Source of the DNA: a virus
Lineage: Duplodnaviria; Heunggongvirae; Uroviricota; Caudoviricetes
IMG/VR virus record: IMGVR_UViG_2574180019_000006
DNA length: 64,000 nt
Direction: 5' to 3' (one strand)
The translations under genes were made by a program, and so were the position numbers. Under the pieces are notes generated by a model. It worked only from the letters and a program-made list of their open reading frames with translations. It was not told the origin of the DNA and did no database searches. Shown one piece after another: positions 1 through 51,341 of the stretch; position 1 is the stretch's first letter; every line of letters begins with the position of its first letter.

Positions 1-43
1 TTTTTCAAAATCGTTACAAAAAGAAGTCGATCCTGAGCAGTAC

Positions 44-1177
44 TTGGCGCTAAAGAATTTAGATGACAGCTCGGTTCATGCTATTGCCCGTGACGATATC
101 ATCTGCCCCATTTGCAAAGTTGGAGGTGGTTCGTTCGTTAGAGCCACTAGGAATGGTGGCTATCACAAGAAGGCGCATTTCAGATTTACCGGTGAAGATG
201 GTCAAGGCCATCATCCATCATGTGATTTCTATGGAGATAGATTAACATCTGAGGTGAAGCAGCACCTTGTCTCATTCACAAAAGATCGAACAAAGTATTC
301 GCAGGTAATACGAAAGCTGGTCTGTGCCGGCATACAGGAAGGGATATTTACTCAAGAAAAAATGTGGCAGATGAGGGAATGGTTCTTCAATAAGCGAAAG
401 GATTCCACATTTGAAATATGGTTAGAAAGCGAGCATTTAGACTGGCTTTATTATATTAGTGGGTTACGTGATGCATATCTAGCATGGACAACTCCTGATA
501 TTCTACCTTTCGCGCCCATTCAGGTTACTGTCCCTGGTTTTTCTTGGAGGCGTGCGATTGACAAAGAGGTGCTAAGAGTTCACATCAAGACTCTCCAGCA
601 ATTGCGTGAAATTTCAGTCTCACATAGTGACATTGCTGTAATCTTAGAACACATAAACAATAATCGTGACCGCACAATTCTCGATCCATCGCATTTGGAG
701 GACGAGATAAGTAAGACCTATAAGCTTACTAGTTTTGTGATGGGCAATTACATTGAGTTTCAGACAAAAACGGTTAGCGACAGAGCATACGGGGAAGCTA
801 AGTTTCTGGCATTTGCAGCACTTTTGTTGTTCGTGTCAGATTGGGACCTCAACATTGCTATTGGTAAGTTTTCTAAGATTGCCAGAGTGAAGGAGGTTGA
901 TGACATGCTGGCTGGTAATTTCATTGGTCTTAATCCTTACTTCCGATACGACCTGGCTAATGCAGTGAAGAGATTGCAGGATAACTGGCCGATTGAATAC
1001 CAAGAGTTGGAGCATTGGAATGTTGAGAAATCCATGCGTGACGCATATGAAAAGTGGCGTGCGACAGAGCCTGAATTCGCTCCACCCCTATTGCCAGACT
1101 TGTATATTGCCAAACATGAGAAAGAAGTCGCACAAGACGAGCAAGTCAGGCAGTGGATTAAGAACGGGGATGTTTGA
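44..1177 (+). CDS. hypothetical protein, Cys/His-rich N-terminus (CPICK...HHPSCDF); may be 5'-truncated by the window edge
   Basis: Long ORF; track start at 44 is a TTG and the frame is open back to position 2. No motif I can assign. Confidence 0.5.
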   Translation: MALKNLDDSSVHAIARDDIICPICKVGGGSFVRATRNGGYHKKAHFRFTGEDGQGHHPSCDFYGDRLTSEVKQHLVSFTKDRTKYSQVIRKLVCAGIQEGIFTQEKMWQMREWFFNKRKDSTFEIWLESEHLDWLYYISGLRDAYLAWTTPDILPFAPIQVTVPGFSWRRAIDKEVLRVHIKTLQQLREISVSHSDIAVILEHINNNRDRTILDPSHLEDEISKTYKLTSFVMGNYIEFQTKTVSDRAYGEAKFLAFAALLLFVSDWDLNIAIGKFSKIARVKEVDDMLAGNFIGLNPYFRYDLANAVKRLQDNWPIEYQELEHWNVEKSMRDAYEKWRATEPEFAPPLLPDLYIAKHEKEVAQDEQVRQWIKNGDV

Positions 1178-1319
1178 GTGTAATTAGCTTAATCAATCAG
1201 TTGATAATGGCGGTCACAATTTGATTCTTTTCTATAAGAATCCGTTGATCGCCACTACTCCCCTTCCATAGCTGCAATCATACCCTTAAATATCAATAGG
1301 TTATGGTTGTTTATACAAA

Positions 1320-2060
1320 TAAGAAAACAACTAAATAACAGATCAACGAAACGTCAACGCTTTCACCCGATTTGGTCTAAAAAATTGACGTTTTCACACA
1401 TCACTTCTTATACCCGTAACTCTACGCAGCAGACAGCGCCACAGCGTCCAATTTTCACCACAGACGACCCAACACACTACCAACAAAAACACACGCTCAA
1501 AATCGCTCCCGTTGCGTTACACAACCATATAAACAACTTATTTTCAGGCATAACAAAACAACTAAATAACACACATGCCATTCCCAAAAACAACCAACCT
1601 CTTTATGGCAGGCTACCGAAAAGACCCACCTCTTCTCCCCAGGCTACCGGACAACCAACCTAACTTTCACAGGCAATCCGAAAACATTCATACGCGCAAT
1701 ACCCACGACACGCCATTCCCCAAACAGCGAAGAAACACCAGAATCACTGAAACCCCAACGAAGCCTGTAACCGCAAGGATTCTCTCAATCCCAAAAGACA
1801 CGAAACATAACAATCACGGGAAATACCATTACCCAATACACGAATAACTACAAAAGCCTTTCACACACTCCAGACAAACAACTCAAACACAATAACGAAA
1901 GGAATCGCCCACCTGCCATTACTCCATACACGGAGAAGAACAATCACCAAAACGACGAGAACACCCCATAGAAGAACCACCGCAAAACGAACGAAACCAC
2001 ATACACCGACAGAGAGAACAACACACCCAATTCACCAACAGAAATAGTCGCCGTATAGAA
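1320..2060. other. A+C-rich, G- and T-depleted non-coding tract
   Basis: Sampled 60-nt lines contain about 5-9 G each by eye; track ORFs here translate to low-complexity T/P/Q/N/H strings with no RBS. Confidence 0.6.
1590..1695. repeat. three tandem ~30-bp direct repeats (AGGCTACCG...CCACCT family), copy 1
   Basis: Units caggctaccgaaaagacccacct / aggctaccggacaaccaacct / aggcaatccgaaaac; same family recurs at 5119-5207. Confidence 0.6.
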
Positions 2061-2246
2061 CGTTCTGGAAGGAGTGAGCATTAACGCCTATAGAGAGGTT
2101 GAGACAGATAAAAACAACATGTATAGCGAAGAAGCCAGGTATGTATAAGTGGGGAGGGAAGGAGGGGTGTCGCCTCCTTTTTCGTATTTATTCAACTCCT
2201 GATTTTATCCCCCCGTAACACCCCTACGGTCAGCCTTCGGTCCATA

Positions 2247-2390
2247 CAGGGAAAAGGTTGCATCCCGCTACAGAAACGGCTGGGTTGCCTTCGGGGAACG
2301 GCTGGGGATTTTCAGGGAAACGGTCGAGTTGCCTGTGTGGATTTCGGGAAAAGGCTCGATGCCGGTTCAGGAACGGCGGCGTACCGGTAT
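2247..2390. repeat. six tandem ~22-bp iteron-like direct repeats (C[A/G]GGGAAACGGCT family), copy 1
   Basis: Units cagggaaaaggttgc / cagaaacggctggg / cggggaacggctgggg / cagggaaacggtcgag / cgggaaaaggctcg / caggaacggcggcg; related array at 5770-5897. Confidence 0.65.
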
Positions 2391-2711
2391 AGCGAGAGGG
2401 AGAGTTGCGGCTACCCACCTGTAATGTGCGGGAAGAAGAGAGGCGCTCACGTAGGCGGACTTGCTTACCGCTGGATTCCCTCTGAATGCCCAGCTACAGC
2501 GTAATTGTGCCAGACAGCCAACGGGGCACAATCGATTTCAGTAGGTTTTTGGGGAGAGGATTACTCTGCCACCAGCCACTTTCGGCCACTAAATCAGAAT
2601 AATGTAAAAAGTGTACTCGGTACTGAACCTGAAAACTCACTGCCAAAACCACATTCACCGGAATAAAATCCTTTTTCGCCTGTGCGTTATTGCGATAATA
2701 ACACCAACAAG

Positions 2712-2726
2712 TAAACAACATGTTTA
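2712..2726. promoter_or_regulatory. AAACA-N3-TGTTT palindrome (operator-like) upstream of the 2758 gene
   Basis: taaacaacatgttta; member of a recurring motif family. Confidence 0.4.
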
Positions 2727-2757
2727 GACGTTATATAAACGAAGTGAGGATGAAGAG

Positions 2758-2976
2758 ATGATTAAGATGCCTGTGACGGTTGAGGTGTGGGGCGTGGATT
2801 CCCTGGCTGAGTGTCTGGATGCAGTGGGGCCGGAGTTGTACCGCAAGTTGTGGTCGTTCGTCCCGGCAGAAGGGGAATCGCCCAAAGGGAAGGATATCTG
2901 GCACCTGCTGAGTGAAGATGAAAAGCGGGAGCTGGTGGACGCGGTACACAGCGAGTTCCCGGGCGACGAAGATTAA
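2758..2976 (+). CDS. hypothetical small acidic protein
   Basis: ORF with a purine-rich stretch (aagtgaggatgaagag) ahead of the ATG. Confidence 0.45.
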   Translation: MIKMPVTVEVWGVDSLAECLDAVGPELYRKLWSFVPAEGESPKGKDIWHLLSEDEKRELVDAVHSEFPGDED

Positions 2977-3114
2977 GAGTGAGGCCACCAGCACGGTGGC
3001 TTTTGTCGCTATTAACCTCCGGGCAGCGCAGCACCGTAACGATATACTTTGTGGCCGTTTTCTTACTGGTATTATTTACGCAATTCAGAAAACAACATGT
3101 TTAAGGATTGCGTT

Positions 3115-3444
3115 ATGTTTGCAAATATCGACATCAACCAAATCAAGAAAATGACTCAAAAAGAGTTTGACCAGTTTTATGAGTTAGAAGGTTGGTCTTC
3201 CACGCTGATCAATTCGCGCTGGGTGCTTGAGCTGATGACTCGTGATGATGCTCCTGCTTTGATTATTTGCGACCTGGGTGAAGATGCTGACTTTATGGAT
3301 ATGAGCGAATTTTGTGTGGACACATACAACCGCAGCCAGAAGTACTACTTCACATGCGATAGCGAGAATGACGTTATTTCTAAGGTCTATCTTCACCTCG
3401 TCCAGCATTGGGACGTTCAGGAGTTTCTTGAAGTATTCGAGTAA
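3115..3444 (+). CDS. hypothetical protein
   Basis: In-frame ATG at 3115 with AAGGA 7 nt upstream; the track start 3049 lies inside a repeated upstream element. Confidence 0.55.
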   Translation: MFANIDINQIKKMTQKEFDQFYELEGWSSTLINSRWVLELMTRDDAPALIICDLGEDADFMDMSEFCVDTYNRSQKYYFTCDSENDVISKVYLHLVQHWDVQEFLEVFE

Positions 3445-3572
3445 CCCCAACCAAAGCCAGCATTGCTGGCTTAATTTCTCTATAGCCGCAGGGAAGAACC
3501 TGCATATCGCTCATGCGCCTGATCAATATGCTTTGTAGCCGTTTTCTTACTGGTATTATTTACGCCATTGAG

Positions 3573-3587
3573 AAAACAAGTTGTTTA
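3573..3587. promoter_or_regulatory. AAACAA-G-TTGTTT palindrome (operator-like)
   Basis: aaaacaagttgttta, 11 nt ahead of the 3598 start, inside a ~50-bp element duplicated at 3040-3110 and 3530-3597. Confidence 0.45.
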
Positions 3588-3597
3588 CGGAGTTGTA

Positions 3598-3909
3598 ATG
3601 AAAAAATCATTGGTTCTTGGTCTGGACAAAGACCAGAAGAGAAAAGAGAAGCCTGCGCTGGTTGCTCAATTAACTTTGCTGGACATCGTTGCCAATGGAA
3701 CCTCTATTCGTCTGTTCCGTGAAACAGCGGTGTCTTTCGATAAAAACACCTTTACTCGTTATGTAATGAATGTTCGTCGCCAGCGTGGAAAAGGCTGGGT
3801 GGCATTTCAAAGAATGTGGCCGGAACATCAGCTCGAACTGGCTTTGATGGAAGTTAACCGCGTGGCCCAGCAAGAGATTCAGAGAGCATCAGTGATGGCA
3901 ATAGCCTGA
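3598..3909 (+). CDS. hypothetical protein
   Basis: ATG at 3598 preceded by GGAG; track start 3568 is less likely. Confidence 0.55.
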   Translation: MKKSLVLGLDKDQKRKEKPALVAQLTLLDIVANGTSIRLFRETAVSFDKNTFTRYVMNVRRQRGKGWVAFQRMWPEHQLELALMEVNRVAQQEIQRASVMAIA

Positions 3910-3944
3910 TAATGTGCAAGTGGCAATTAGTCGACAGTACGACA

Positions 3945-3972
3945 GCCCCGCCATCCTTACGGGGCTTTTTTG
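3945..3972 (+). terminator. rho-independent terminator
   Basis: gccccg-ccatcctta-cggggc followed by a T run. Confidence 0.6.
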
Positions 3973-3976
3973 TATT

Positions 3977-3992
3977 GTAAGTATATACTTAC
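3977..3992. promoter_or_regulatory. perfect 16-bp palindrome GTAAGTATATACTTAC
   Basis: Identical 16-mer recurs at 24623-24638; about 45 bp ahead of the 4036 start. Confidence 0.5.
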
Positions 3993-4035
3993 GATCATAG
4001 AATATAAAAATAACCAAAACACTACGGAGAGTGAA

Positions 4036-4431
4036 ATGACCGTTAAACGCGAAAAACTGACAGTTGATGTTTACTATGCCTCTGAAACCGCCGAAGGTAA
4101 GAATGTGGCAAAAATTACCGTTGTTACGTACAACACCGAAACTGGTGCCGAAGTCCAGGCCAGTACGATCGTTCGTAAAGGTGATGCCTCCGGCGGCGAG
4201 TACGCGACTCAATACCAGTCCATTCTCGATGCAACTGACCCGCTGCTGCTGAAAATCGAGAACTACTTCCGCCAGGTTGATGAAGAGGTGTTTGAAACCA
4301 TGATGAATATGGTTAACACCGTATTCGCCTCCAGCCTGAATACCAACACTACCTGGATTGGTCAGTACGGCCTGCGCATTACCTCTGGCATTCCTGCCGA
4401 CACCTTAATCCCTGAAAGCGTATTCGCTTAA
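4036..4431 (+). CDS. hypothetical protein
   Basis: ATG at 4036 preceded by GGAGAG; followed by a terminator. Confidence 0.6.
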   Translation: MTVKREKLTVDVYYASETAEGKNVAKITVVTYNTETGAEVQASTIVRKGDASGGEYATQYQSILDATDPLLLKIENYFRQVDEEVFETMMNMVNTVFASSLNTNTTWIGQYGLRITSGIPADTLIPESVFA

Positions 4432-4440
4432 TCCTCTTTA

Positions 4441-4468
4441 AATGGCGCGTAAACCGCGCCATTTTATT
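4441..4468 (+). terminator. rho-independent terminator
   Basis: aatggcgcg-taaa-ccgcgccatt then ttatt. Confidence 0.6.
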
Positions 4469-4548
4469 AAGCCCGATAACAATTTGTTTTCTGCCTTATC
4501 TGATTTGTGAAAATGATTTCACTGAAGCAACTTAATAAGGAAACCATC

Positions 4549-4923
4549 ATGGGACTTGATATCTATATCGAGACACAGCCTAAAAACGATCTGAATAACG
4601 AGGCATCCAGAAAGCAGGTTGCTTACTTCCGTAAGTTCAATGCGCTCGTTGGGTGGATGGAGCGCAACGTAGGTGAAGTCGAAAATTGTGAGCTTTTAGA
4701 ATTAACGATGAATGACATTTGTTTTCTGAAGGCTCATTTGATGCACATAAACGAAAGTAATTGCGAAGAGTACTTGCCTACCCGGGAAGGTTTTTTCTTC
4801 GGCAGTCAGGAGTACGATGAAGGTTACTGGCATGATGTGGGGCAGTTGAAAGAGCTTGTGGAAGATCTGATTAAGAACCACGACTTTCACAATAACAGAC
4901 TGACCTTCTGCGCCTGGTGGTAA
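4549..4923 (+). CDS. hypothetical protein
   Basis: ATG at 4549 preceded by AAGGAAACC; track start 4507 lacks an RBS. Confidence 0.55.
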   Translation: MGLDIYIETQPKNDLNNEASRKQVAYFRKFNALVGWMERNVGEVENCELLELTMNDICFLKAHLMHINESNCEEYLPTREGFFFGSQEYDEGYWHDVGQLKELVEDLIKNHDFHNNRLTFCAWW

Positions 4924-4925
4924 AT

Positions 4926-5069
4926 ATGGGCGATTTCAAGAAACGCCTGAAGGAAAGAGCCGAGATGGTCAGAAAGCAAAACGCCTCTTCTGTCATCAGA
5001 TACGCAAGGCAGTTTAGTCGCAACAACAAATCAGTTGAGGAAAAGATCCTTAGCGTAATCGTGCGATAA
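4926..5069 (+). CDS. hypothetical small basic protein (47 aa)
   Basis: ATG overlapping the upstream stop (taaATGg); translated by hand; below the track length cutoff. Confidence 0.3.
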   Translation: MGDFKKRLKERAEMVRKQNASSVIRYARQFSRNNKSVEEKILSVIVR

Positions 5070-5118
5070 TTATTAAGGCCATCAGCATTGGTGGCCTTAA
5101 ATGACCATCTTGTTTCCC

Positions 5119-5207
5119 GCAGGCTAAAAACACCAACCTCTTACCTCCAGGCAACCGACAAACCCACCTGTTCCCGTCCGGCTACCGCAACTTTCCACTT
5201 TGACGCC
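5119..5207. repeat. three tandem ~30-bp direct repeats (AGGCTACCG...CCACCT family), copy 2
   Basis: caggctaaaaacaccaacct / caggcaaccgacaaacccacct / cggctaccgcaactttccac. Confidence 0.6.
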
Positions 5208-5273
5208 TTATTCGTACAACGATAATTAACACCAACAAGAAAACAATTTGTTATTTACGATAAGGAATTAATC

Positions 5274-5756
5274 ATGAATTTTATCGCTACTGTAAACGCA
5301 CCCGCACATGGCAATATCGCTGTAACGTTCTCTGACATTGAAAAACGAGTACTTGGTGCATGGCGCGACAATGAGACGGTAGAACTGTCAGCACAAGAAA
5401 AATGCATTATTGCACGCGACATCATTGGCAATCGTCGTTACTCGCGGGTATTTGAGAAAGCGTATGTGGTAAATTCTGGATTCGGAACGTTCGTCTTTCC
5501 GGTGCGCTCCGGGCGATTCTGCCAGTCCAAGCTGATTGAGTTCGCTACGCAGATTTCTTTCTGGATTAAAACTCAATCGTCGTTCAAATTTTCCGACGAT
5601 GAAGCAGTATCGCAGGGGATGCGGATCGCCAACAATGCAATTAAATGCAAAAACATTACGTATACCGCTGGCGTTGATACATGGAAACTGTTTTGCGCTA
5701 ACTTTATGCTGAATGTATACGCAAGCAACCGCATCCACATCCTTGATGGCGTGTAA
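5274..5756 (+). CDS. hypothetical protein (160 aa) lying between the two repeat arrays of locus 2
   Basis: ATG with AAGGA RBS; AAACAA-T-TTGTT palindrome 20 nt upstream. Confidence 0.6.
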   Translation: MNFIATVNAPAHGNIAVTFSDIEKRVLGAWRDNETVELSAQEKCIIARDIIGNRRYSRVFEKAYVVNSGFGTFVFPVRSGRFCQSKLIEFATQISFWIKTQSSFKFSDDEAVSQGMRIANNAIKCKNITYTAGVDTWKLFCANFMLNVYASNRIHILDGV

Positions 5757-5769
5757 CTGAGAAGAGGGC

Positions 5770-5897
5770 CAGAAACGGCCCTTTCTCTATAGCCACCAGC
5801 TGCCGCAGGGAAATTTTCAGAAACGGCGAGGAACGTATTCATGAGCCGACGGGGAACGGCCAGGATTTTTTCGGGAAACGGCTGCATTTGCCTTTGT
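5770..5897. repeat. iteron-like direct repeats (GGGAAACGGC family), copy 2
   Basis: cagggaaattttcagaaacggcgagg / cggggaacggccagg / cgggaaacggctgcatttgcc. Confidence 0.55.
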
Positions 5898-6362
5898 GTA
5901 GAAAAAACATCGGGAAGCTGGTGGAATCCAACCAGCGGTTGTCGGACAGGTGAGCGGGGAAAATTATGATGACTTTCGTCACCTGAGACATCCAGATTTC
6001 TTTCGTAGCATAATCACATACGTGATTAAGTGGTGTGATTATGTGAAAAATCACGCGCACATAATACGCGAGCGGATACGGAACAAAACAAAATGCCGAT
6101 CCGCGCCGACAAATAAACGCGGATCATAAAGCAAGACTAAAAGCCAATGATTAACTATGCGCTATAACGCGTTTTAAGCGCGTTAATGTGTTAAGTAATG
6201 GGTATGTACTGGCAAGGATATAAAAGCGCGTCTATGGCGTTATTTTGGCGCTTATTTTTATGTTGTTGGAGTGAGTTAAAGACAATAAAAAACGCGCCAT
6301 CAATGGCGCGTTATTGTGGAAGTATTGGAAACGAAAAAAGCGCCCATAGTGGGCGCTCGATT

Positions 6363-7812: not shown

Positions 7813-8337
7813 TTAAAATGGAAGGATTCGTTCAACCCAATCGAAGAAAACAAGTATTTTTCTGCCGTCTTCTAACTTAAGAGTGACCTGGCAAGCATCA
7901 ACGCCTCTTGACACCCCTTCTATTTCACGACCGTCTGTCATGTAGACCCTTATAGATTGGTCGTTTTGATAAGCCTTGCGACATATCGCAAAAAAGTCAC
8001 GGCGTGATGGCTGATTGTCAACATAGTCTGGATGTATTGTTAGCCTACCTTTGAACTCGCGAGCAATGTCATCGATTACACCTGATTCAATTGTGCTAAT
8101 GCGCTCAAGTGGGAGTCTTATACGATTTTCTTTATCATATGGAATCGGGCATAAATCTAGCTTATTGCGTGAAGGCATTGTCCCCTGAACGTACATGCAA
8201 AACACCTGACCGTCTTCAAGCGTGACTCTTACAGGAATGTTGTTCTTCCGCCAGAACATAAGTATGTTCTCAGCATGTTCGTAGTCTCGCGGCCAGACTT
8301 CAGCCGGTATGCCGTAGGTGATGTCCAATGTTCTCAT
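7813..8337 (-). CDS. hypothetical protein (174 aa)
   Basis: ORF whose start overlaps the upstream gene end (8334-8337). Confidence 0.55.
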   Translation of the reverse strand: MRTLDITYGIPAEVWPRDYEHAENILMFWRKNNIPVRVTLEDGQVFCMYVQGTMPSRNKLDLCPIPYDKENRIRLPLERISTIESGVIDDIAREFKGRLTIHPDYVDNQPSRRDFFAICRKAYQNDQSIRVYMTDGREIEGVSRGVDACQVTLKLEDGRKILVFFDWVERILPF

Positions 8338-15564: not shown

Positions 15565-15619
15565 CCTGTTTCTGTATATATAAATAATAAGTAACTTATT
15601 AAATATATACGGAAGCAGG
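15565..15619. repeat. 55-bp element, copy 1 (exact duplicate at 51287-51341), containing near-palindrome ATAAGT-A-ACTTAT
   Basis: cctgtttctgtatatataaataataagtaacttattaaatatatacggaagcagg occurs identically at both loci. Confidence 0.7.
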
Positions 15620-46917: not shown

Positions 46918-47586
46918 ATGACCAAGATCTTTGTGGTTGGCGGCACAAAGGGCGGGCCTGGCAAATCCACCGTTGCCCAGCAAATTGCCGTTTGCCTGAA
47001 AGTCAAAAAGAAGAAGAAGGTTTATATTACCGATATAGATATTCAGCGCACGACAACGAGCTGGTGTGAAGACCGTCGACAGAACGAAGACCTTGAGCTG
47101 ATTCCTTTTGCATACGTTCAGGATGACATCATTAAGCATCTAAAATCGCTTCAGGGTAGAGCTGAGTTTGTAGTGGTAGATGCTGGTGGCTTCGACTCCG
47201 AAATTCAGCGACAAGCGATGCTGATGGCTGACGTTATCATTATCCCGCTGCGTCCTAAGCGTCGTGATTTGAAATCTTTACGTGACATCGATCCTATTAT
47301 CGACAATGTTCGCAATGTAAACGATAAAGTGAAGGTCCGCGCGGTCATGAACCAGTGCCCGGCTTTGCCATCACAAGTGTCTCGCATTCTGGCGGCTAAA
47401 GAGATTGTTGAGACGTTTGGAATCGAGTCTGCGCCAGTCAATCTATATAACCGCAACGTCTATGATGATGCGGAAGAGTCTGGTCGTTCTATCTTTGAAA
47501 TGACCGGTAGCGAGCGCGACAAAAAGGCGGAAGCCGAGTTTGAAGAATTTGTAGATTATCTGTTGAGTCTGGAGGAAGAAGAATAA
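46918..47586 (+). CDS. parA: ParA-family partition ATPase
   Basis: Deviant Walker A GGTKGGPGKST; small ParF/SopA-like size. Confidence 0.85.
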   Translation: MTKIFVVGGTKGGPGKSTVAQQIAVCLKVKKKKKVYITDIDIQRTTTSWCEDRRQNEDLELIPFAYVQDDIIKHLKSLQGRAEFVVVDAGGFDSEIQRQAMLMADVIIIPLRPKRRDLKSLRDIDPIIDNVRNVNDKVKVRAVMNQCPALPSQVSRILAAKEIVETFGIESAPVNLYNRNVYDDAEESGRSIFEMTGSERDKKAEAEFEEFVDYLLSLEEEE

Positions 47587-47945
47587 TGTCCATGAAAATG
47601 GGTGACCTAGCAAAGCGCAAAGAGCCTGATGCACCGGCTAAGAACACAACTCCTTTGCGCCAACCAGTCAGACCACAGGGACGCCCGACTCGTGGCAAAG
47701 AGAAAATTAAAAGCCGCACAATGTCACTGGAGGACGAATACTTCGAACTGCTGGAGATGATGAAGTTCATCCCTCGCTTCGAGAAGTTCACTCGTTCTGA
47801 CGTGATTCGAGCAGCCATTTTCCATCTGGCAGAGAAGTCACCGCAGGAAATCGAGGACATCGTGAAATTGAATGAGGCGATCACCGCTGCCGATGTCACG
47901 ATGCGTACCGATGAAATCAAACGAGAGTTGATGAAGAAAGGTTAA
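47586..47945 (+). CDS. partition centromere-binding protein (ParG/ParB-like, small)
   Basis: Basic disordered N-terminus and helical C-terminus; coupled to parA. Confidence 0.55.
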   Translation: MSMKMGDLAKRKEPDAPAKNTTPLRQPVRPQGRPTRGKEKIKSRTMSLEDEYFELLEMMKFIPRFEKFTRSDVIRAAIFHLAEKSPQEIEDIVKLNEAITAADVTMRTDEIKRELMKKG

Positions 47946-48075: not shown

Positions 48076-50655
<2,580 letters not shown>

Positions 50656-51286: not shown

Positions 51287-51341
51287 CCTGTTTCTGTATA
51301 TATAAATAATAAGTAACTTATTAAATATATACGGAAGCAGG
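51287..51341. repeat. 55-bp element, copy 2 (exact duplicate of 15565-15619)
   Basis: Identical sequence upstream of the 51458 gene. Confidence 0.7.

Follow-up and report, generated by a model that had tools for sequence, protein, structure and literature searches.

The replication origins of P4 (ori/crr), SPP1 (oriL/oriR) and R6K (alpha/beta/gamma) are characterized by repeats lying approximately 22 bp apart in the same orientation, by two loci a few kilobases apart which share repeat families, and by an element that encodes its own helicase and primase. In transcription-activated or RNA-primed origins, typified by lambda pR-ori, P1 P53-oriL, T4 oriF/oriG, ColE1 RNA II and mitochondrial LSP-CSB, a regulated promoter is found several hundred bp 5′ of a block of G-runs on the non-template strand. 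Features of both kinds are present in a 64,000-nucleotide stretch of Caudoviricetes DNA (IMG/VR record IMGVR_UViG_2574180019_000006), referred to here as the window, at a site which we call locus 1 (~1200-2700, ~1.5 kb). Its sequence suggests a set of putative iterated protein-binding arrays around a regulated non-coding unit. We tentatively rank first, as one possibility, that locus 1 is a cis-acting DNA control region belonging to the phage side of the element rather than to plasmid maintenance, and a candidate for a transcription-gated origin or replication-control region of the lytic cycle. Unlike the P4-type origins it has three repeat families, not one, and a 650-bp asymmetric tract without counterpart there. 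Direct repeats are not part of the transcription-activated origins, and hybrid formation is hypothetical here; RNA II is moreover highly structured, whereas the leader of locus 1 is unstructured and C-rich.

The region 1200-2700 shows 91-98% identity to Escherichia phages CMS-2020a, Cyrano and PhiR41_1, and these relatives, together with the gene content of the rest of the window, mark it as an SSU5/pHCM2-type phage-plasmid of E. coli. Phage genes for terminase, capsid, tail and integrase are present, as are three tRNAs and a ParA-like ATPase. The element has replication genes of its own, encoding a DnaB-like helicase, primase, DnaE, ligase, RNase HI and a UvsW-like helicase; the last two are enzymes acting on R-loops and their presence is a further likeness to the transcription-activated origins. 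Locus 1 is the largest stretch of the window free of genes and RNA genes, the other large intergenic gap having the three tRNAs inside it. Sensitive blastn searches of PLSDB matched locus 1 in 839 plasmids (65-99% identity) from Klebsiella, Escherichia, Enterobacter, Salmonella (pHCM2), Citrobacter and Cronobacter, and it occurs in 243 of 5,426 complete E. coli genomes (4.5%), plasmid-borne every time. A literature search, which did not cover a 2026 preprint on phage-plasmid copy number and heteroresistance or a paper on transposon-directed insertion-site sequencing (TraDIS) of S. Typhi, found no description of the region; nor did it find a mapped lytic origin or partition site for SSU5/pHCM2-type elements.

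The three repeat families of locus 1 each have all units in the same orientation, and they, like the other parts of loci 1 and 2 described below, lie on the + strand. Family A (1593-1678) comprises three units of the form ACCMACCTC, 8-9 nt, CAGGCWAYC, with cores at 1593-1617, 1624-1648 and 1654-1678, and thus a spacing of 31 and 30 bp. The pattern ACCMACCT-N10-GGCWAYC has five exact matches in the 64 kb, all in locus 1 or in a second locus described below; 11 other matches carry 1-3 mismatches, where 5.5 are expected at up to three. Family B (2248-2388) consists of six 22-bp units with the core GGGAAACGG(C), starting at 2248, 2270, 2292, 2314, 2345 and 2367 (spacing 22/22/22/31/22 bp). The preliminary description of this DNA had reported these two direct-repeat families and the recurrence of the pair at locus 2, and local alignment against shuffles bears this out for both (z = 15.5 between the A arrays of the two loci, z = 11.7 between the B arrays). 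A third family, C, absent from that description, is confined to locus 1, with copies of GCCATTACCC at 1577, 1712, 1825 and 1915; its core is GCCATTACYC and it extends to as much as 28 nt in relatives. The possibility that A and B are inverted copies, or direct relatives, of one repeat was rejected (z ~1, not significant). Resemblance of the A units to the anti-Shine-Dalgarno region, as mimics or complements of the 16S rRNA 3′-end, was likewise not significant, and comparison of the C units by eye gave no convincing match to promoters for alternative sigma factors or phage RNA polymerases.

Among 27 distinct copies from relatives, A units are spaced exclusively by 29-31 bp and B units by 21-23 or 31 bp, a B value of 44 representing one unit skipped by the strict pattern. 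These copies contain 4-6 C units, an A-to-B distance of 627-725 bp and a tract of 66-76% A+C. Within family A the cores are conserved at 0.9-1.0 and the spacers at 0-0.3; for family B the values are 0.7-1.0 for the core GGGAAACGG and 0.2-0.6 for the spacer. The arrays were earlier termed iteron-like, and the term is apt for repeats with conserved cores and free spacers lying ~2 or 3 helical turns apart in 27 distinct relatives; conserved cores and helical phasing of direct repeats are what theta-type iterons display, the phasing being lost in one deep relative, L015. Absence or poor conservation of the arrays in close relatives had been named beforehand as grounds for dismissing a role, and the cores are kept throughout the 27. 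The deep relative L041, whose flanking proteins share no more than 31-55% identity, retains the motif cores and the number of C units nearly unchanged; the C spacing is 138/111/99 as against 135/113/90 in the window, and the sequence between the copies has diverged. Conservation of this depth suggests that the putative partner, whether from the phage or from the host, would itself be very conserved. The pair of GGGAAACGG at 22-bp spacing that belongs to locus 2 is preserved in dozens of IMG/VR contigs and also in pMT1. In IMG/VR, scanning for paired GGGAAACGG yielded SSU5-like elements and a single deeper clade within that family, besides unrelated matches due to chance or to simple repeats; it brought up no further phage family in which the motif has a known function.

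The A and B families recur as a pair at locus 2, 3.5 kb from the pair in locus 1, in the same order, orientation and distance (~650-700 bp). Array A of locus 2 (5118-5186) consists of a half unit and two units (5132-5156 and 5162-5186); its neighbors are the hairpin of the preceding gene on one side and, on the other, the promoter of a gene for a 160-amino-acid (aa) protein, and it is intact in Y. pestis pMT1. The transcription unit (5198-5756) has its promoter/operator at 5198-5252 and the gene itself at 5274-5756 (PHROG 1641, function unknown), with a terminator hairpin 3′ of it at 5766-5788. The B units follow at 5806-5895: CAGGGAAA at 5806, CAGAAACGG at 5818, GGGGAACGG at 5851 and GGGAAACGG at 5873. 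The recurrence of family B is thus confirmed there, whereas the sequence at 5771, taken earlier for its first unit, forms the loop of the hairpin that terminates the 160-aa gene. With array A before the promoter and array B after the terminator, both lie outside the transcription unit and therefore act as untranscribed DNA at this locus. The 160-aa protein has no Pfam match, no known fold and no similarity to Rep, and as a member of a PHROG family of unknown function it was set aside as a recognizable DNA binder or initiator. The arrangement of a small gene between two arrays in a phage-plasmid host recalls the P1/RepFIB replicon (iterons, rep, iterons). It differs from this in that the two arrays belong to different families, that the protein is not Rep-like, and that the actual RepA of these elements has unrelated 19-bp iterons 29 kb away.

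The anatomy of locus 1 was refined by alignment of nine relatives and two deeper ones (L015 and L041). The first conserved block (1200-1255; alignment conservation 0.8-0.86) lies at the border of variable cargo and conserved backbone and contains an invariant TTTCTATAAG, GTTGAY repeats and, on its flanks, lineage-specific inverted repeats. The TTTCTATAAG motif persists in the distant L015 and L041, where the flanking palindromes differ. Upstream of 1200 the content varies among relatives L001-L009, with metG, apbC, defense genes and insertion sequence (IS) elements; in the window itself the region 1-1200 encodes a 377-aa protein. The conserved backbone begins exactly at GTTGAYATTGGCGGTCAC, and given the variable content on its other side, the left edge of locus 1 is a cargo-insertion boundary. 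Within 1320-1416 there follows an AT-rich operator-like stretch with AAGAAAACAAC at ~1321-1331 and the inverted repeat AACGTCAA/TTGACGTT, and a sigma70-like promoter directed into the tract (TTGACG 1385-1390, 17 nt, TTATAC 1408-1413). No relative, L015 and L041 included, departs from the two hexamers or their 17-nt spacing, although the spacer sequence itself has diverged, which is the usual signature of a promoter; a simple consensus scan did not list it because the -10 hexamer lacks the final T. An AT-rich block (1494-1571) directly upstream of array A contains a conserved ATCGCTCCCGTTGCGTTA and copies of a palindromic operator, AAACA-N3-TGTTT, at 1531 and, as a half-site, at 1553.

This 13-bp palindrome is found at 2712, 3089, 3573, 5240, 15658/15683, 46869 and 52209, with degenerate copies at 1322, 1531 and 1553. 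It is placed between a -10-like hexamer and a ribosome-binding site, and precedes the terS, parA-like and dnaB-like operons as well as each small gene downstream of locus 1. It looks like a putative genome-wide operator, comparable to the C1 operators of P1 or the dispersed SopB sites of N15. On the - strand at 7813-8337 a 174-aa regulator of the FljA family is encoded (PF03614, E = 3e-80) with a weak Hfq-like match at its C-terminus. Salmonella FljA represses fliC at the mRNA level, and for that reason the FljA-like protein might act on RNA, perhaps at the palindromic operator in 5′ leaders.

Downstream of the promoter is an A+C-rich, G- and T-poor tract of ~650 bp (1420-2050), non-coding, with very few NTG start triplets and no self-complementarity; its core (1900-2050) is very conserved. 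Between approximately 1400 and 2000 the G content is 8-16% and the GC skew -0.4 to -0.58, in agreement with the G-depleted tract first described between the arrays, and T is also depleted, A+C reaching ~75%. In pHCM2 (106 kb) the equivalent 1-kb bin is the most extreme in both GC and keto skew. The tract leads to a G-run block (2138-2196) comprising GTATAAGTGGGGAGGGAAGGAGGGG (2138-2183), a hairpin with a T-run at 2156-2183 and a conserved CGTATTTATTCAAC; together they form the sharpest local change of GC-skew sign in the genome. The bin 2101-2400 has the most G-runs in the window (10 versus a mean of 2.2) and the bin 1501-1800 the most C-runs. A strand composed almost only of A and C has no room for start codons, palindromes or hairpins, which suggests that the tract is single-stranded, as RNA or DNA, at some stage. 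As a G-quadruplex the block was discounted, there being no canonical four-run motif, just a relaxed one at 2150-2166, and A-tract curvature was similarly dismissed for want of a 10-11 bp periodicity.

Codon structure is absent as well, and the preliminary description was correct in calling the locus 1 gap non-coding. Relative to four diverged relatives, substitutions are spread evenly over the three codon positions in every sub-region, and the stop-free frames differ among relatives without conserved starts; a coding region was accordingly rejected. PGAP places no gene at locus 1 in most sampled plasmid records, nor in any of 15 sampled E. coli records, and the hypothetical open reading frames (ORFs) annotated here in Cyrano and PhiR41_1 are most likely spurious. 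These data bear on a very improbable group of explanations, namely that locus 1 is a decayed or unrecognized protein-coding gene, a packaging (pac) site, or a site of recombination or cargo capture. The hypothetical ORFs of the two phage records would speak for the first of these, as would the fact that indels between clades are often multiples of three; they are opposed by the lack of codon periodicity, conserved frame or start codon and by the silence of PGAP. Cargo capture would suit a left edge (1200) lying exactly at the junction of variable cargo and conserved backbone; the integrase gene, however, is 55 kb away, and the terminase genes are 14 kb away.

The asymmetry of the tract could also be that of a transcript. 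One rival explanation, which we hold to be unlikely, is a trans-acting non-coding RNA of ~600-750 nt, made only in the lytic cycle; it would begin at the promoter at 1385-1413 or at the operator block and end with the hairpin at 2156-2183. Without structure or start codons, it would use its A and C motifs as a sponge or platform for Rho, S1 or the FljA-like regulator. A single-stranded stage offers the best explanation for strand asymmetry of this extent (650 nt), and the depletion of NTG start triplets (3-10 versus ~34 expected, 3- to 10-fold), a C/G ratio of 1.5-2.7 and folding no better than that of shuffles on either strand (z -0.4 and +1.5) are all compatible with such an RNA. So are the conserved promoter and operators, the terminator-like hairpin that scanning revealed where the tract ends in the E. 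coli clade, the number and spacing of C motifs kept in L041, and a FljA-like regulator with a weak Hfq-like match encoded nearby. Against this, Rfam 15 gave no covariance-model match in 1-6000, even at E<=5, and the RNAalifold covariation terms for the B array and the whole unit (+0.32 and +0.16 kcal/mol) gave no support; one long-range helix, from the spacer of A1 to ~1966-1976, has a single compensatory pair and is not counted as evidence. Convincing pairing of the hairpin is limited to the E. coli clade, that in other relatives being weaker, and in locus 2 the A and B arrays lie outside the transcription unit. The sponge RNAs CsrB/RsmZ and CrcZ share with locus 1 a long non-coding unit with several copies of short conserved motifs, CrcZ being A/C-rich as well; they differ in that locus 1, known here from its DNA sequence, has neither motif-presenting hairpins nor enrichment of GGA or ARN. 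A sponge for Hfq (ARN) or CsrA (GGA) was excluded from consideration, as neither motif exceeds what composition predicts. The layout of a type III toxin-antitoxin (ToxIN-like) system, with tandem RNA repeats and a terminator directly 5′ of a gene for a toxin of the ToxN/AbiQ fold, is not found here.

Expression data are available for the Cyrano lysogen of LF82 grown in LB (PMC9928086, table S1), as RNA-seq counts per annotated + strand ORF, perhaps sense-only, which describe lysogeny only. CYRAN_103 (window 1307-1663) is at the floor value and CYRAN_104 (~2150-2555) shows a low one; the values are 57 for the cargo gene CYRAN_102 upstream and ~25 for CYRAN_111 (the 160-aa gene). The drop from CYRAN_102 to CYRAN_103 indicates that cargo transcription stops before the tract. 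On its sense strand, and in this one lysogen, locus 1 therefore appears silent in lysogeny; the lack of reads in its 5′ third counts against the non-coding RNA, although it is mute on the lytic cycle. By far the strongest expression among Cyrano genes in the same lysogen is that of CYRAN_43, a hypothetical gene next to the integrase and repressor (~7,000 versus a background of ~7; PMC9928086, table S1).

These observations also enter into a second rival, that of a transcriptional control module. Here the A and B arrays would be regulator sites which bracket, and perhaps loop, a unit of ~650 bp, with the leader of locus 1 as a Rho-loading zone gating transcription from the promoter at 1385-1413, or from the upstream cargo, toward the early-gene cassettes. 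The tract has the computational hallmarks of a Rho utilization (rut) site, being untranslated, unstructured and richer in C than in G; it is placed exactly between variable, lysogen-expressed cargo and monocistronic cassettes, and arrays flank a transcription unit in both loci. Rho-dependent terminators such as lambda tR1 similarly comprise C-rich, G-poor, unstructured and untranslated RNA 3′ of an early promoter, but the locus 1 tract is approximately eight times longer, contains conserved repeated motifs and has DNA arrays on either side. The case is weakened by the finding that read-through from the cargo had already ended before the tract in the LF82 lysogen, and by the possession of its own promoter by every downstream gene. 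Moreover, 650 nt and three conserved repeat families far exceed the needs of a terminator, and no antiterminator candidate is known. We consider this module unlikely. The more general suggestion made earlier, of a regulatory array, is plausible.

A plasmid replicon is a role from which locus 1 can be separated. The repA gene of pHCM2, at a distance of 29 kb from locus 1, has 19-bp iterons (CTACTCTCTACAGTGGTTA) on both sides; their 17 copies (<=2 mismatches) all fall at 7.5-9.6 kb of pHCM2 and none in locus 1 or 2. A, B and C were for these reasons rejected as iterons of RepA (IncFIB/P1-type), their sequences being unrelated and their location elsewhere. The RepA replicon shows ~96% identity with 63 Yersinia plasmids, and Yersinia does not appear in the list of genera with matches to locus 1. 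In the one record examined of Y. pestis pFra/pMT1 (L137, 6856-8700), IS1541 marks the junction of a ~25-kb deletion which takes out nrd, thyA, dam, rnhA, cargo genes, locus 1 and most of the small genes. The 160-aa gene with its A and B arrays intact is retained. As pMT1 keeps its replicon without locus 1, the latter is dispensable for RepA-driven plasmid life, and the iteron origin proposed in the preliminary description does not hold in the sense of a plasmid replicon. In another plasmid, the 213-kb IncFIB/IncR plasmid pX39-1 of K. variicola (L013, 7000-7900), the left two thirds of locus 1, from block 1 through the C repeats, are present, cut off by foreign sequence and with copies of IS903B and ISKpn26 on the flanks; this looks like a recombination remnant from a phage-plasmid.

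Sites for plasmid partition or copy control are a further, and quite improbable, reading. The repeats would form centromere-like sites for the ParA-like ATPase and its 119-aa partner, or for the two ParB_N proteins, these sites being present twice, like those of N15 or pB171. Together with its partner, the ParA-like ATPase (46918-47586) forms an operon (46918-47945) that is 41-45 kb from the arrays; neither in the window nor in pHCM2 is there a repeat array beside it, which would leave a centromere to be sought elsewhere, and the ParA-like gene and locus 1 show matching distributions across genera. Centromeres of type Ib and type II typically consist of repeats iterated in phase with the helix, and the likeness extends to R1 parC, pB171 parC1/parC2, F sopC and the N15 sites in the direct repeats, the presence of more than one site per replicon and the phage-plasmid context. 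Locus 1 is unlike these iterated centromeres in not adjoining a par operon and in having units which are longer (22-30 bp, with 9-16 bp cores, exceeding typical type Ib repeats) and of three kinds; the 650-bp strand-asymmetric tract and the promoter are not needed by a centromere. The stability of pMT1 without locus 1 is a further argument against, although that plasmid has its own P1-type par system and locus 2. The more specific proposal of a centromere for two ParB-like proteins finds no support: no parS (TGTTNCACGTGAAACA-like, 16-bp palindrome) was matched with <=3 mismatches anywhere in the window, the two ParB_N genes adjoin the terminase genes, and nothing points to a centromere role. 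The ParA-like ATPase and its 119-aa partner are likelier to be the partition system than the ParB_N pair.

This brings us back to a control region for the lytic cycle. It is placed first because the element has its own replisome without a known lytic origin, because locus 1 is its largest feature-free region and because the arrays resemble protein-loading sites; the layout, which recalls P4 ori/crr and the transcription-activated origins, contributes to the ranking. A conserved promoter and an operator of the type found at the terS, dnaB-like and parA-like operons point into the tract, and the duplicated A...B pair, the dispensability of locus 1 in pMT1, the sharp change in skew and the Chi sites lying between the two loci are consistent with this choice. 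Chi (GCTGGTGG) occurs 14 times in the 64 kb versus 1.4 expected (a count reached in 0 of 100 shuffles), about the density of the E. coli chromosome, and five of the 14 sites form a cluster at 2569-5924, those at 2569 and 5793 being conserved in relatives.

Under the lytic-cycle scheme, the operator-controlled promoter at 1385-1413 would be off in the lysogen. Upon induction it would fire rightward through ~650 nt that can be neither translated nor folded, and transcription would then arrive at the G-run block and the B array. The A, C and B arrays, with their sites on one face of the helix, would be loaded by one or more phage or host proteins, and transcription together with the nucleoprotein complex would open up the duplex to the DnaB-like helicase, primase and DnaE that the element itself encodes. 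The same protein-binding arrays would be present a second time in locus 2, on the pattern of P4 ori/crr or SPP1 oriL/oriR. We infer protein binding, promoter activity and any replication role of locus 1.

Several results weigh against a lytic origin at this site. No recognizable initiator gene adjoins locus 1, the 160-aa protein being without known fold, and in this, as in the absence of DnaA boxes and of an AT-rich element beside array B, it is unlike the P4, SPP1 and R6K types of origin. The DnaA-box consensus TTWTNCACA is absent from 1100-5900; conserved stretches of >=70% AT occur only at the promoter/operator blocks 1295-1365, 1515-1590 and 2661-2745, so that one abuts array A and no conserved unwinding element lies beside array B. 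A promoter scan found no clear leftward promoter at locus 1, and pHCM2 shows no genome-wide switch of GC skew at the locus. The rightward transcript would be C-rich and G-poor, by which R-loops over the tract itself are disfavored. The motifs of L015 have drifted, with a B spacing of 28/24/34 bp; helical phasing is therefore not universal. Finally, a 55-bp AT-rich palindrome, CCTGTTTCTGTATATATAAATAATAAGTAACTTATTAAATATATACGGAAGCAGG, is present in two identical copies at 15565-15619, before terS, and at 51287-51341, before a module encoding a 249-aa protein, helicase and primase; it may act as a promoter or activator site common to both places, or be a rival candidate for the origin. No PDB or PHROG function was found for the 249-aa protein upstream of the helicase.

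The region between the two loci (2680-5100) contains approximately six small genes of unknown function (PHROGs 6757, 7645, 5125, 2473 and 7971). They are monocistronic cassettes, each with a homologous promoter/operator and its own terminator hairpin, and their number varies among relatives. At 5940-6130, 3′ of locus 2, where gene orientation flips, several TAATCAC/GTGATTA inverted repeats are found (e.g., AATCACATACGTGATT), which may be another operator region. Just 3′ of the ParA-like operon there is an insertion (48262-50655) comprising an ISEcp1-like DDE transposase and then a class A beta-lactamase, and the phage-plasmid of this window is thus a carrier of a resistance gene.

Phage-plasmids of the SSU5/pHCM2 type are frequent in clinical Enterobacteriaceae and carry resistance genes. 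Locus 1 is their largest conserved non-coding element and is unannotated in most of the records listed; a 650-bp strand-pure tract that is unfoldable, untranslatable and palindrome-free is a curiosity in its own right. That it represents a new kind of phage origin or control element, in which an operator-gated promoter reads through a structure-free, untranslatable tract of 650 nt into a G-run zone, with arrays of binding sites on either side, and either starts lytic replication or yields a new class of long unstructured regulatory RNA, is conceivable, if rather improbable. If true, the switch would be common to more than 800 sequenced phage-plasmids, including pHCM2 of S. Typhi and the elements of E. 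coli and Klebsiella that carry extended-spectrum beta-lactamases. The clear-cut motifs of locus 1, open to mutation, pull-down and cloning, provide a concrete, testable handle on copy-number control and induction in these elements.

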